Of a stretch of 64,000 nt of DNA, positions 34,835-36,794 are shown piece by piece. The DNA comes from Escherichia coli phage vB_EcoM_Shy: sequence record MT833282.1; one strand, given 5' to 3'. Below the pieces are notes generated by a model. The model made no database searches. It was not told the origin of the DNA and was given only the letters and a program-made list of their open reading frames with translations. The position numbers were made by a program, and so were the translations under genes. Within the stretch, counting starts at the first letter, position 1. The number at the start of each line of letters is the position of its first letter.

Positions 34835-35021
34835 AATGACCTCAAAGTTATATTAAATTTTGTATTACATTGAGTATAAAAATAAGCTATAACACCTGAC
34901 TTGTCAACAGATTTTATAGCTTATTTGGCAGATTTTTTATAAGGCTACTGCCATCCTTCCATACCAAACCCTACCGAACAGAACCATGCTTTGCCATACT
35001 GGACAACACCTGACCAGACAT

Positions 35022-35085
35022 CACTTAAAAACCCTTTTCAAAGACTCTTAAGTGATGTAATCGAATTTTAATGTAGCTCCGATTA
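35022..35085. repeat. module A1: hairpin H1 (35022-35054) plus hairpin H2 (35058-35085)
   Basis: H1 stem cacttaa/ttaagtg, loop aaacccttttcaaagactc; H2 stem taatcg/cgatta, loop aattttaatgtagctc; then actacccatacc. Confidence 0.55.
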
Positions 35086-35100
35086 ACTACCCATACCTTG

Positions 35101-35180
35101 CATTACTTCACCAAACCGTACATTACTTCACCAAACCATACATTACCAGACCATGCCACACCTGTCCAAACTCAACCTCA
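35101..35180. repeat. tandem pentanucleotide array (ACCNN on plus strand) organised as 20-bp iterons
   Basis: 16 consecutive pentamers in phase; cattacttcaccaaacc(g/a)ta repeated twice exactly, then two degenerate copies. Confidence 0.7.
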
Positions 35181-35242
35181 TTAAAAGACCCTCTTTAAAG
35201 ACCTTTTAATAAGGTAAGTCTCATTTTAATGTAGCTGAGACT
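35180..35242. repeat. module A2: hairpin H1 (35180-35210) plus hairpin H2 (35217-35242)
   Basis: H1 stem attaaaag/cttttaat, loop accctctttaaagac; H2 stem agtctca/tgagact, loop ttttaatgtagc; near-identical copy at 36572-36634. Confidence 0.6.
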
Positions 35243-35244
35243 AA

Positions 35245-35310
35245 CTACCCATACCAGACCCTACCTTACCAAACCAGACCTCACCCTACCCCACCATACC
35301 GTATACTACC
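35245..35310. repeat. tandem pentanucleotide array (CNNAC/ACCNN)
   Basis: about 13 phased pentamers: catac cagac cctac cttac caaac cagac ctcac cctac cccac catac. Confidence 0.65.
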
Positions 35311-35339
35311 TCATTAAAAGACCCTGTTTAAAGACCTTT

Positions 35340-35366
35340 TAAAAAGGAGCCTCCGAAGAGGCTACC
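35340..35366 (-). terminator. rho-independent terminator for minus-strand gene 35375-35815
   Basis: minus strand reads agcctc-ttcg-gaggct followed by cctttttaaaa. Confidence 0.5.
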
Positions 35367-35374
35367 CAGTCAAC

Positions 35375-35815
35375 TTAGAAAGGTTTTCTGCGTTGCTTGT
35401 TAATGTTAGCTTTCATAGCAGCTAAATGGTTTTGCTGTTCAATCAGTCGTGAACGTTCTTGATGGCTAAGTGCCATAGTGTTCACATTCTCAATCGCTTG
35501 AGTAGCTTGCTTTAAAGCACGACCAATCTTACCAGACATTTTACGTTTTGCAATAGTTGCTTGATGCTTAGGTTCGACAACACGATAACCAACACCCATT
35601 GAAGCAACCAGATAAATCTTCTCTTCTTTAAGAAGCTTCTCAATAAACTTCTCAAGTCGGTTTAGACGTGTAAGTGCATAAGCCTTCATTTCATCTTCGT
35701 ACTTAACAATGTCGCCTTGATAAGTTGGCTTCACAATACCTAAGAAGGTGTCCATCTCAGAATGTGATACAGTGTCACCGTAACTAAACTTTGCTGCTAA
35801 TGCTTTTGTATTCAT
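35375..35815 (-). CDS. hypothetical protein (cassette gene 2)
   Basis: 146-aa ORF, basic C-terminus; flanked by repeat regions. Confidence 0.55.
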   Translation of the reverse strand: MNTKALAAKFSYGDTVSHSEMDTFLGIVKPTYQGDIVKYEDEMKAYALTRLNRLEKFIEKLLKEEKIYLVASMGVGYRVVEPKHQATIAKRKMSGKIGRALKQATQAIENVNTMALSHQERSRLIEQQNHLAAMKANINKQRRKPF

Positions 35816-35817
35816 AA

Positions 35818-36420
35818 TTAAACGTTACCTTCTGAAATAACTTCTACAGAAAAACGACCAAAGCGTGGACGCCAATCACCTACACCACAAAGGTTACCAG
35901 CATTTTCCAGAACCATCAGGAGTTCCTCTCGTGTGATTTGCTCTTCATCGAACATCAAACCGAACTCTACAGACCAGTCACGGAAGATTGGACGGTAGCT
36001 CATAACTCGTGCTGTACCAATCTTAACAGACTTAGCATAGATAAAGTCTGGATTCTTAGCAAGTTCTTGTGGGTTTGCTGGACAGTTCTTGATAGTCATT
36101 GGGAAGACTACATCTGTCAGCATAATGGCTCGGTCAATTACCTTACCAAGTTTGTTGAGTTTTGCACCAGACTTGATGCAAGCCTCAATCATCTCACCGT
36201 TCATAACAAAACCTAGTTGCTCATCGTAGTAACAAGAAGTTACCAGTTGGCTTTCTGCTAAGAGCGCATAGTCTTCGTCAGTCTTTTTACGTTTACTGGA
36301 CAGAGACTTGTGATATTTTGTCAGAGGATTTAACGGGTCTGACAACGTATCGTTATGGCTCAGGAAAGGACGAGTACCAGTGATTTTGATATTTAACAGT
36401 TTCATAGCATTTAGCTCCAC
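35818..36420 (-). CDS. hypothetical protein (cassette gene 1)
   Basis: 200-aa ORF immediately upstream of 35375-35815 on the same strand. Confidence 0.55.
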
Positions 36421-36480
36421 ACTTTAGTTGATTGTTAAGTTGTTTGTAAAGAACCCTCAACAGAAGACTCTTTAGAAACT

Positions 36481-36508
36481 TGGTAGATTTTTAACGTGGC
36501 TACTACCA
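36481..36508. repeat. module B0: hairpin H2 variant
   Basis: stem tggtag/ctacca with loop atttttaacgtggcta (compare aattttaatgtagctc at 35064-35079), followed by tccacccatacc. Confidence 0.55.
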
Positions 36509-36520
36509 TCCACCCATACC

Positions 36521-36569
36521 GTGCCACACCACACCGGACTATACCATGCCCAACCCTACTACACCAGAC
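36521..36569. repeat. tandem pentanucleotide array (NNACC)
   Basis: gtgcc acacc acacc ggact atacc atgcc caacc ctact acacc agacc. Confidence 0.6.
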
Positions 36570-36571
36570 CT

Positions 36572-36634
36572 TATTAAAAAACCCTCTTAAAGACCTTTTA
36601 AAAAGGTAAGTCTCATTTTAATGTAGCTGAGACT
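36572..36634. repeat. module B1: hairpin H1 plus hairpin H2 (copy of A2)
   Basis: aaaaccctcttaaagaccttttaaaaaggtaagtctcattttaatgtagctgagact nearly identical to 35183-35242. Confidence 0.6.
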
Positions 36635-36647
36635 AACTACCCATACC

Positions 36648-36734
36648 TTACCGCACCGGACATTACCGGACCGCACATCACCGCACCAAACCAAACATCA
36701 CATTACCTGACCTCACCGCGCCTTACCATACCTC
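36648..36734. repeat. tandem pentanucleotide array (NNACC), about 17 units
   Basis: ttacc gcacc ggaca ttacc ggacc gcaca tcacc gcacc aaacc aaaca tcaca ttacc tgacc tcacc gcgcc ttacc atacc. Confidence 0.7.
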
Positions 36735-36766
36735 ACTTAAAAACCCTCTTAGAAGACCCTTAAGTG
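36734..36766. repeat. module B2: hairpin H1 variant
   Basis: stem cacttaa/ttaagtg with loop aaaccctcttagaagaccc (same stem as A1). Confidence 0.5.
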
Positions 36767-36794
36767 ATGCTGGTGAGTACCCGTTGGTTTATGC

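Follow-up and report, generated by a model that had tools for sequence, protein, structure and literature searches.

The locus described here occupies positions 34926–36827 of the 64,000-nucleotide stretch of the Escherichia coli phage vB_EcoM_Shy genome that was analysed (the window); the phage is a Felixounavirus, and the locus contains two protein-coding genes, vipr and vap1, and five vrRNA genes, all on the minus strand (Table 1). Its neighbourhood consists of replication genes (ligase, polymerase, td and frd). In the direction of the genes, the predicted layout is a sigma-70 promoter, two vrRNA genes (region B), vipr, vap1, a terminator-like hairpin and three more vrRNA genes (region A), where each vrRNA would consist of tandem GGYNN pentamers and, at its 3′-end, a pseudoknot of ~35 nucleotides.

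Table 1. Predicted features of the vipr locus of phage Shy, listed from the highest to the lowest coordinate.
Feature	Coordinates	Strand	Basis
Sigma-70-type promoter of the vrRNA-vipr-vap1 operon	36800..36827	-	TTGACA-16-TATACT, 11/12 matches
H1e, precedes vrRNA1	36733..36767	-	RNA fold of 16 bp with 3-nt loop; family covariation
vrRNA1 repeat tract, 18-19 GGYNN units, apparently composite (two half-guides)	36643..36737	-	Unit parse and target matches
vrRNA1 3′ tail (H2e)	36607..36642	-	S1 GUAG:CUAC, S2 AGUCUC:GAGACU; covariation
H1d, between vrRNA1 and vrRNA2	36572..36606	-	RNA fold, covariation
vrRNA2 repeat tract, 11 units	36516..36570	-	Unit parse
vrRNA2 3′ pseudoknot tail (H2d)	36481..36515	-	S1 GUGG:CCAC, S2 GGUAG:CUACC
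H1x, after vrRNA2 and before the ribosome-binding site of vipr	36449..36472	-	Fold of 10 bp; kept in 22/22 loci
vipr, 195 aa from the ATG at 36405; ancestral RAMP protein polymerising on vrRNA	35818..36405	-	phmmer against PDB
vap1 (vipr-accessory protein), 146 aa	35375..35815	-	Directly downstream of vipr; identity to SUSP1 gene
Intrinsic-terminator-like hairpin and T-run after vap1	35340..35363	-	AGCCTCTTCGGAGGCT then CCTTTTTAAA
H1c, precedes vrRNA3	35309..35345	-	Copy search, covariation
vrRNA3 repeat tract, 10 canonical and 2 degenerate 5′ units	35251..35310	-	Unit parse
vrRNA3 3′ pseudoknot tail (H2c)	35216..35250	-	Unit parse, fold, covariation
H1b, 18 bp, precedes vrRNA4	35176..35214	-	RNA fold
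vrRNA4 repeat tract, 17 units (10 canonical), with a 20-nt internal duplication	35093..35177	-	Unit parse, TRF
vrRNA4 3′ pseudoknot tail (H2b)	35058..35092	-	S2 AAUCGG:UCGAUU
H1a, precedes vrRNA5	35023..35053	-	RNA fold
vrRNA5 repeat tract, 13 units (7 canonical), mostly beyond the coordinates of the earlier note	34961..35025	-	Unit parse
vrRNA5 3′ pseudoknot tail (H2a)	34926..34960	-	S1 AAGG:CCUU, S2 GGCAG:CUGCC
Promoter of the next gene (34451-34834); downstream boundary of the locus	34879..34907	-	TTGACA-17-TATTTT, 10/12 matches

The first cassette protein was identified by a sequence search of the PDB using phmmer, which aligned its residues 1–195 with chain 36pp_D, "SUSP1 Vipr protein" (E = 1.5e-127), at ~97% identity over the full length; hence, the locus was assigned to type II VIPR. 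VIPR (Viral Interference Programmable Repeat) is presented in the available parts of two bioRxiv preprints of April–June 2026 (10.64898/2026.04.26.720920, 10.64898/2026.04.26.720927), the second of which describes Vipr as a minimal RAMP protein with an RRM core, a G-rich loop and a thumb. Residues H17, K33, E71, M72, R138, C173, D177, W178 and R179 are all present in the Shy protein, and the RNA- and DNA-contact residues named in the accessible text of the structure preprint (10.64898/2026.04.26.720927) are all kept except for position 175, which is discrepant. The Vipr family has at least 519 homologues, in which the G-loop residues G170, G174, R179, G183 and F185 are invariant. The product of vap1, a presumed DNA-binding protein that belongs to phrog_5926 and has no Pfam match, shares 99.3% identity with the product of its positional counterpart in SUSP1 and SUSP2 (L019 and L021), and the parts of the preprints that were available give the name vap1 to the second gene in the operon of SUSP1 (10.64898/2026.04.26.720920, 10.64898/2026.04.26.720927). 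Searches of Pfam, PHROGs, NCBIfam and PADLOC with both cassette proteins returned only PHROG families of unknown function, PADLOC matching neither protein. An earlier note on this DNA had linked the two proteins to the repeat arrays, and they do belong with them, Vipr being a vrRNA-binding RAMP protein and vap1 an accessory gene; even where the homologue of vipr encodes a protein of only 37–40% identity, period-5 arrays are found on either side of it.

In the whole 64 kb, runs of at least four ACC-period-5 units occur only at 34963–35312 and 36518–36734, and only on the plus strand; the strand of interest is that of the genes (GGUNN), as had been supposed. The period-5 Fourier power of the tracts is 4.3–7.8, compared with 0.6–0.8 (sd ~0.4) in 500 dinucleotide shuffles (z = 8.5–19.8), a comparison with shuffled sequence that had been named beforehand as a check on the 5-nucleotide periodicity, and nearly all of the strongest period-5 80-nucleotide segments of the 64 kb fall in these two regions. 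The arrays reported in the earlier note as four tracts of 10–17 pentamers exist, but they number five, with 10–19 units; the module overlooked consists of an H2-type hairpin (34926–34960) and the adjoining tract (34961–35025), and lies mostly before position 35020. The 20-bp iterons described in that note were recovered by TRF at 35101–35146 (period 20, 2.3 copies, 96% matches). Among 92 vrRNAs (69 unique guides) from 22 related phages, the consensus unit is GGYNN; the unique guides have G at position 2 in 98% of units, a pyrimidine at position 3 in 100%, 1.9 bits of entropy at positions 4 and 5, and A or U instead of the first G in 23%. Near-identical phages differ widely at the NN positions, and phage wV8 carries a guide identical to vrRNA3. 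In Shy, numerous units depart from the canonical first base (AGY or UGY), and vrRNA1 (19 units) and vrRNA4 (17 units) are longer than the published 9–16 repeats.

On the evidence of covariation, the H2 element is the H-type pseudoknot tail predicted at the 3′-end of each vrRNA. Type II vrRNAs are characterised by such a tail, ~40 nucleotides long and invariant in its architecture. The sequence TTTTAAYGTRGCT has four exact matches, all within the array regions, and a diverged fifth copy at 34927–34953, which upholds the description of H2 stems swapping with compensation around a kept loop. Conservation of the loop is explained by four of its bases, which form covarying pairs with the last pseudo-repeat, where the repeat tract ends. 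Among 17 unique tails, 95.3% of cells are paired and changes on both sides are found in 9 of the 10 pairs; none of 500 shuffles was as good, and slid controls reached 31–39%. Taken with the covariation of the H1 hairpin, these results agree with the prediction that the hairpins are selected as a folded nucleic acid. A search of the whole window against Rfam 15 yielded only tRNAs above the gathering score and, at E ≤ 10, three chance-level matches in the locus; neither H1 nor H2 had a credible match to a ribozyme or to any other Rfam family.

The H1 element forms a sense-RNA helix of 10–18 bp, rich in G-U pairs, that lies 5′ of every vrRNA and of vipr, with five or six copies in the locus. Its outer stem swaps with compensation, as claimed previously, whereas the "conserved loop" of that description is itself paired by G-U wobbles, the real loop being 3–5 nucleotides; the stem covariation is drawn from just three sequence classes. 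The inner pairs form on the sense strand only (92.9% vs. 40.5%), and the vrRNA tail together with H1b folds at -23.9 kcal/mol (z = -3.86), with none of 200 shuffles as stable. H1 was considered as a sigma-70 promoter (TTAAAA-17/18-TTTAAT) and rejected as a general explanation, as the hexamers vary among the three H1 classes while the pairing is kept and is specific to the sense strand; an intrinsic terminator was likewise rejected, since no U-run follows the helix and a terminator scan found only the hairpin after vap1. RNase III hairpins are found in the early transcripts of T7, and RNase III matures the pre-crRNA of type II CRISPR systems. By analogy, H1 would resemble such sites as a double-stranded RNA element between the functional RNAs of a polycistronic transcript, and it differs from them in being only a candidate site, with G-U-rich stems of 10–18 bp. 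We propose H1 as an element that may release individual vrRNAs from a longer precursor, for instance by acting as a site of RNase III-type processing. The fuller reading, that H1 is a dedicated biogenesis element cut by a double-strand-specific RNase (RNase III) or a VIPR protein and that long vrRNAs such as vrRNA1 are natural dual guides, with two independent half-sites directed at one satellite gene, is offered tentatively, at less than an even chance for the two together. In the accessible portions of the VIPR preprints (10.64898/2026.04.26.720920, 10.64898/2026.04.26.720927), H1 is not described as a biogenesis element; if the fuller reading were true, it would be the functional counterpart of the hammerhead ribozymes of other VIPR types.

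A minus-strand promoter had been predicted near 36795–36822, and a match to the sigma-70 consensus was indeed found slightly further upstream (36827→36800); its sequence is also kept in Felix O1 and related loci. Region B would be cotranscribed with the cassette from this promoter, as expected of the 5′ leader proposed earlier, but the arrays are genes for discrete guide RNAs of ~100 nucleotides, with the NN positions encoding DNA targets. Region A, with its three vrRNA genes, sits downstream of the terminator-like hairpin.

The closest known relative is the type II VIPR system of SUSP1, with which the locus shares not only its two proteins (Vipr ~97% and Vap1 99.3% identical) and an identical gene order but also GGYNN vrRNAs, the classes of pseudoknot tail, H1 hairpins and the class of satellite targeted. 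The SUSP1 genome (L019) was parsed as one upstream and three downstream vrRNAs, in agreement with the published sRNA-seq; Shy, in contrast, has two upstream vrRNAs and five in all, its NN guide sequences are largely different, and, unlike SUSP1, it carries one apparently composite guide (19 units) and another with an internal 20-nucleotide duplication. Felix O1 has lost both vipr and vap1 but retains an orphan vrRNA. Direct repeats are mentioned in publications on Felix O1, wV8 and UAB_Phi87, and the wV8 record carries the annotation "DR_4", but none of the papers offers an interpretation of these arrays.

Together, the arrays and their hairpins are therefore genes for the guide RNAs of a phage-encoded VIPR, a CRISPR-related system in which RNA directs the silencing of DNA, and 34926–36827 is almost certainly a complete type II system of the SUSP1 clade whose guides would silence foreign DNA. 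Systems of this kind are already known, having first been described in the two 2026 preprints, and are not new here. In SUSP1, according to the available parts of these reports (10.64898/2026.04.26.720920, 10.64898/2026.04.26.720927), vrRNAs are RNAs of ~100 nucleotides that co-purify with Vipr and silence transcription, and reporter silencing follows the NN positions when these are reprogrammed. By extension, Vipr of Shy would polymerise along the vrRNA, one protomer per pentamer, burying GGY and presenting NN; the concatenated NNs would pair with double-stranded DNA of the form (xNN)n, every third base being skipped, and transcription of the bound gene would be blocked by Vipr-vrRNA binding. 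The expression of vrRNAs, RNP formation, the 1-nucleotide-skip rule and transcriptional silencing are SUSP1 results (10.64898/2026.04.26.720920, 10.64898/2026.04.26.720927) extrapolated to Shy, whereas the homology of vipr and vap1, the repeat statistics, the covariation of the pseudoknot and H1, and the target matches were computed here. The suggestion that a 5-nucleotide period marks an array of sites for an oligomeric single-strand-binding protein is matched by Vipr, with one protomer per RNA pentamer (10.64898/2026.04.26.720927).

Judging from matches at the NN positions, the guides of Shy are probably aimed at a parasitic E. coli satellite island of ~11 kb, the yciI-tonB satellite, which is present in 474–479 of 5426 complete E. 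coli genomes (~9%). Targets were searched in 11 satellites (240 kb) out of ~475 under the 1-nucleotide-skip rule, which for type II guides calls for an NN match of at least 80% to foreign DNA, typically in coding sequence with the skip in wobble phase; given this sample, the best natural targets may lie among the rest. Units 8–18 of vrRNA1 match at 21 of 22 NN bases (95%) in the satellite tape-measure gene, with the skip base at codon position 3, and units 1–10 match at 18 of 20 (90%), marginally above the null, at another site in the same gene, again with the skip at position 3. vrRNA2 matches the tape-measure gene of one satellite (L038) at 19 of 22 NN bases (86%), with the skip at the wobble position, and vrRNA3 matches another satellite (L036) at 4807–4842 (21/24, 88%). 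Four of the 11 satellites contain a 558-nucleotide CDS that vrRNA5 matches at 21 of 26 NN bases (81%), the skipped base being in the wobble position; in a fifth, the same site matches at 20 of 26. The matches of vrRNA2, vrRNA3, vrRNA5 and both halves of vrRNA1 all exceed unit-shuffled nulls, and the skip base falls at codon position 3 in four of the five coding-sequence matches. The match of vrRNA4 is weak and partial (16/16 over units 1–8, in a satellite HTH gene) and out of wobble phase. No self-target above the unit-shuffled null was found in the 64-kb window, and no vrRNA-like period-5 arrays were found inside the 11 sampled satellites. An exact-pattern scan of IMG/VR with 10 vrRNA1 units gave one match, in a high-GC contig (L033), which was taken as chance since it fails to extend (27/38) and the contig has no k-mers in common with the satellites.

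Three other accounts of the locus were weighed. That the repeats act at the DNA level, as a replication origin with iterons or a parC-type centromere bound as double-stranded DNA by the cassette proteins, with the hairpins as cruciforms or nicking sites, accords with the position of the locus among replication genes, the 20-bp duplication and the flanking of a two-gene cassette by repeats, as in some par loci. It is nevertheless extremely improbable: the cassette encodes a RAMP protein that binds RNA and whose RNP structure has been solved, the arrays all have the same orientation with respect to the genes, the inner H1 pairs are confined to the sense strand, the variable NNs match foreign coding sequences in wobble phase, and Felix O1 replicates without the cassette. 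The replication-origin alternative raised in the earlier note was accordingly rejected on the strand specificity, the RAMP protein and Felix O1; with regard to the features of iteron origins and parC sites, the dominant period is 5 rather than 10–22, and the arrays are strictly strand-specific with sense-only structures. Only slightly less remote is a cis-regulatory 5′ leader without guide function, in which GGUNN arrays would bind a ring-forming or oligomeric protein in the manner of TRAP or a CsrA sponge. Region B does lie between the promoter and vipr, and its period of 5 is similar to the interval between TRAP sites; yet three of the five arrays are downstream of the cassette and its terminator, the NNs are hypervariable between near-identical phages and match satellite genes, and discrete RNAs of SUSP1 programme DNA silencing in the published results that were available (10.64898/2026.04.26.720920, 10.64898/2026.04.26.720927).

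A partly decayed VIPR system, with vipr and vap1 intact but vrRNA4, vrRNA5 and the 5′ part of vrRNA1 as relics that neither load Vipr nor silence, is a more serious contender, although still unlikely. Only 7 of 13 units in vrRNA5 and 10 of 17 in vrRNA4 are canonical, so some guides may be weak or decaying; vrRNA4 also contains the internal duplication, changing all GGY to AGY abolishes silencing according to a figure legend (Fig. S12) in the available VIPR preprint text, and Felix O1 shows that decay to an orphan vrRNA is possible. Against this, vrRNA5, the most degenerate guide, retains its wobble-phase match in four satellites (21/26) and a fifth (20/26), and the A or U that replaces the first G in 23% of units among the 69 guides indicates that such degeneracy is normal for the clade.

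A functional VIPR system, the reading preferred here, can be set beside two better-known arrangements. With the Cas7 filaments that assemble on crRNA in Class 1 CRISPR-Cas, it shares the RAMP fold with its G-rich loop and thumb, the binding of a fixed number of guide nucleotides by each protomer, the flipping of bases at regular intervals and RNA-guided recognition of foreign DNA. It differs in its period of 5 nucleotides (three buried, two read) rather than 6 (five read) and in reading the target with a 1-nucleotide skip; it is phage-encoded, acts by silencing, and has no CRISPR repeats or spacers, Cas1/Cas2 adaptation module or nuclease. TRF and repeat output contained no array of identical direct repeats of ~28–37 nucleotides separated by unique spacers, and only a single RAMP-like gene was found. 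The TRAP-trp leader RNA of Bacillus, an 11-mer ring on (G/U)AG triplets spaced by 2–3 nucleotides, is similar in that an oligomeric protein reads a short conserved triplet with a period of ~5 nucleotides in single-stranded RNA; TRAP, however, is a closed ring that controls a single leader in cis, the spacers of its target are uninformative, and it is not homologous to RAMPs.

VIPR represents a recently described way in which RNA reads DNA, with a filament of a minimal RAMP decoding a repeated pentamer scaffold; in the parts of the preprints available, it is proposed to be older than CRISPR (10.64898/2026.04.26.720920, 10.64898/2026.04.26.720927). The Shy locus is a further case from nature, with five guides for which plausible targets exist in satellites, and its hallmarks (the 5-nucleotide period, the conserved triplet and the covarying structures) were recoverable from sequence alone. 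Modest possible additions are H1 as a candidate processing element, composite and duplicated guides, the orphan vrRNA of Felix O1 and the high prevalence (~9%) of the satellite in complete E. coli genomes. The satellite carries tape-measure and baseplate genes resembling those of Felixounavirus, and VIPR would therefore serve in a conflict between phage and satellite.

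The arrays are confined to two repeat regions, which bracket a cassette of two genes (ORFs 35818-36420 and 35375-35815): over the whole 64 kb, ACC recurs in runs at 5-nt intervals at 34963-35312 (region A) and 36518-36734 (region B) and nowhere else, always on the plus strand. The period-5 spectral power of each tract lies 8.5-19.8 sd above dinucleotide shuffles (n = 500); periods of 3, 4, 6, 7, 10, 15 and 20 are weak in the tracts, and almost all of the top 80-nt windows for period 5 in the entire window fall within the two regions. The 20-bp duplication described in the earlier note is likewise real (TRF, 2.3 copies, 96%). 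The array modules that it reported are present, but there are five rather than four (three in region A and two in region B), and its coordinates missed most of the first module (34926-35025). Region B also contains an additional hairpin resembling H1, one of two hairpin types (H1 and H2) found with the arrays, immediately upstream of the cassette.

All genes in the region are on the minus strand; the cassette has the DNA ligase gene on one side and an ORF of 127 aa on the other. The 2-kb region has matches in 230 phage records, nearly all of them Felixounavirus, the group of Felix O1 and wV8 relatives; Escherichia phage PHB11 is the best match (95%). Elsewhere in the window, 26 tRNA genes, 24 of which pass the Rfam gathering score, are clustered at 2281-7361 on the plus strand, as is typical of Felixounavirus, and a 27-nt tandem repeat (28044-28112; 2.1 copies, 80-87% matches) lies within a 391-aa tail-fibre gene (27078-28253); repeats common to genes 76 and 77 were noted in the Felix O1 genome paper.

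The family of the 195-aa cassette protein (519 matches) ends at its C-terminus in an invariant glycine-rich motif and contains no Pfam domain. A sequence search of the PDB returned one strong match, 36pp, "SUSP1 Vipr protein" (E = 1.4e-81 for the family profile as query and 1.5e-127 for the window protein), to which the window protein is ~97% identical across all 195 residues; it carries H17, K33, E71, M72, R138, C173, D177, W178 and R179. Downstream of vipr, phages SUSP1 and SUSP2 have a gene to which the second ORF is 99.3% identical. In two bioRxiv preprints (10.64898/2026.04.26.720920, PMC13142463; 10.64898/2026.04.26.720927), a VIPR system is made up of the minimal RAMP protein Vipr, an accessory gene (vap) and vrRNAs, each with 9-16 YNNGG repeats followed by a ~40-nt 3′ tail that holds a pseudoknot. 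On the RNA, Vipr forms a polymer in which each repeat is bound by one protomer, burying GGY and presenting NN; the presented NNs base-pair with (xNN)n sites in double-stranded DNA, and binding silences transcription (same preprints). In SUSP1, vrRNAs lie on both sides of vipr-vap1, one upstream and three downstream, and most guides of its clade target a satellite phage in E. coli (same preprints); our parse of SUSP1 gave 1 + 3 vrRNAs. The residue "T175", said in the structure preprint to line the pyrimidine pocket, is V both in the window protein (codon 35881-35883) and in the deposited 36pp chain, and is probably a slip in that text. The match to 36pp identifies the locus as a VIPR system. 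The observation of the earlier note is confirmed with minor corrections, and its interpretation is right in part: an oligomeric protein on a single strand, folded RNA and gene-strand transcription of the arrays probably hold. The locus is not a replication origin, which the note gave as an alternative, nor simply a 5′ leader.

Anatomy of the locus in minus-strand order (one unit is one GGYNN pentamer)
Feature	Position	Strand	Placement
Operon promoter	36827->36800	minus	
H1e, vrRNA1 (19 units), vrRNA1 pseudoknot	vrRNA1 36643-36737	minus	next after promoter
H1d, vrRNA2 (11 units), vrRNA2 pseudoknot		minus	after vrRNA1
H1x, then vipr, vap1		minus	after vrRNA2
Terminator-like hairpin	35363->35348	minus	after vap1
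H1c, vrRNA3 (10-12 units), vrRNA3 pseudoknot		minus	after terminator-like hairpin
H1b, vrRNA4 (17 units), vrRNA4 pseudoknot	vrRNA4 35093-35177	minus	after vrRNA3
H1a, vrRNA5 (13 units), vrRNA5 pseudoknot		minus	after vrRNA4
Promoter of next gene		minus	end of locus, after vrRNA5

A viral-contig search with the 195-aa protein identified 18 Felixounavirus loci and six distant loci at 37-40% identity, and period-5 arrays flank the homologue in each of these loci, so that protein and arrays co-occur in phages that differ widely. The gene-strand pentamer of L024, a distant locus of high GC content, is GGCNN, and arrays occur there before, between and after the two genes. Across 69 unique guide regions from 92 vrRNAs parsed in 22 related phages, G occupies position 1 of the unit in 76% and position 2 in 98%, and position 3 is always a pyrimidine (100%), with an entropy of 1.9 bits at each of positions 4 and 5. 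These values reproduce the published GGY/NN pattern, except that the first G is less strictly kept.

H2 is the vrRNA 3′ pseudoknot. Its loop motif has four exact copies, all in the two repeat regions, and its stem (S2) differs by tail class with full compensation, as the earlier note had seen. The loop is not unpaired, however: it is conserved because four of its bases (CUAC, CCAC or CCUU) pair with four bases after the last repeat (GUAG, GUGG or AAGG), and the variation recorded as "(t/c)gt(a/g)gct" is half of this helix, whose covariation is visible within the window alone. In a set of 17 unique tails, pairing is seen in 95.3% of cells, with both-side changes in nine of ten pairs; none of 500 shuffles reached the observed values, and sliding the partners reduced pairing to 31-39%.

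H1 is located 5′ of every vrRNA and, as H1x, of vipr, and no copy follows the last vrRNA. With 12 units and a 40-nt tail accounting for the ~100 nt of the mature SUSP1 vrRNA, the lengths place H1 outside it. It is not mentioned in the accessible text or supplement of the VIPR preprints. RNA folding indicated that its supposed conserved loop is itself paired via G-U wobbles; the resulting helix spans 10-18 bp and leaves a loop of 3-5 nt. Among 21 unique H1 sequences, a 16-pair helix is 90.2% paired with both-side changes in five pairs, a covariation that comes from three sequence classes only. For the inner six pairs, pairing is 92.9% on the sense strand versus 40.5% on the antisense strand; this sense specificity rules out a DNA cruciform and indicates a structure of the gene-strand RNA. 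A sigma-70 promoter, an intrinsic terminator and a known Rfam family were all rejected. The best inference is that H1 is a candidate processing or boundary element separating vrRNAs, a role analogous to that of the hammerhead ribozymes described between vrRNAs of other VIPR types; RNase III would be the obvious candidate enzyme. Three loci of relatives (L002 ~4600-4660, L007 ~5190-5250 and L018 ~5200-5260, sense coordinates) each have one H1 with a ~22-nt apical insertion (…GAGTCTTTAAATTATATTCGATAGAGTATCTCATAGGGTTTTTAAGTG…). Among the inter-array elements of L024 (4630-4690 and 4740-4785) is a hairpin bearing a T-arm-like motif (GGGTGCGAATCCC), which may point to processing signals of a tRNA-like kind there instead of H1.

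Of 5426 complete E. coli genomes, 474-479 have a satellite-like island. The phage gene that follows the tape-measure gene (window 21290-22087) is matched at 90-94% at the DNA level in 474 genomes; its counterpart in the island is the baseplate gene (90-94% identical). The matching islands (~11 kb) carry a serine recombinase, tape-measure, baseplate and HNH genes and sometimes a Dam-like methylase, occupy three or more sites (yciI-tonB, ymdF-wrbA, yecN-yecD) and are highly variable among themselves. Guide targets were searched in 11 sampled islands (L028-L032 and L034-L039, 240 kb in all).

Guide matches in the satellite islands
Guide	Guide bases matched	Target	Skip base (x)
vrRNA1 units 1-10	18/20	different tape-measure gene site	wobble position
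vrRNA1 units 8-18	21/22	tape-measure gene	wobble position
vrRNA2	19/22	tape-measure gene (L038)	wobble position
vrRNA3	21/24	unannotated region, L036 4807-4842	outside any CDS
vrRNA4 units 1-8	16/16	HTH gene	codon position 1, not wobble
vrRNA5	21/26	558-nt CDS, four islands; 20/26 in a fifth	wobble position

The chance expectation for each match is at most 1e-3 in 240 kb, with about ten-fold to be allowed for multiple testing in the sub-segment matches (vrRNA1 halves, vrRNA4). All scores exceed the maximum of 20 unit-shuffled nulls except that of vrRNA1 units 1-10 (15.0, where the nulls reach 15.5). None of the guides matches a site in the window itself above the unit-shuffled null, and an exact-pattern scan of viral contigs for vrRNA1 gave a single match, judged to be chance. 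The 5′ ten and 3′ eleven units of vrRNA1 match their two tape-measure sites on opposite strands, both in wobble phase, and vrRNA1 looks like two guides joined. vrRNA4 contains an internal 20-nt (four-unit) duplication (TRF, 35101-35146) and several AGY/UGY units. In the 11 islands no target convincingly matches it over its full length, and the guide may be in decay or the product of a recent rearrangement.

Felix O1 (NC_005282) is without vipr and vap1. At 3740-3900 on its minus strand, between the ligase gene and ORF87, the operon promoter and a slightly degenerate H1 are kept, together with a single vrRNA-like tract of ~11 units with a "last-vrRNA" pseudoknot tail, which looks like an orphan guide left after deletion of the cassette. 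The feature belongs to a family already described in 2026; the remaining points of note are the H1 hairpin, the composite or duplicated guides and the orphan vrRNA of Felix O1.
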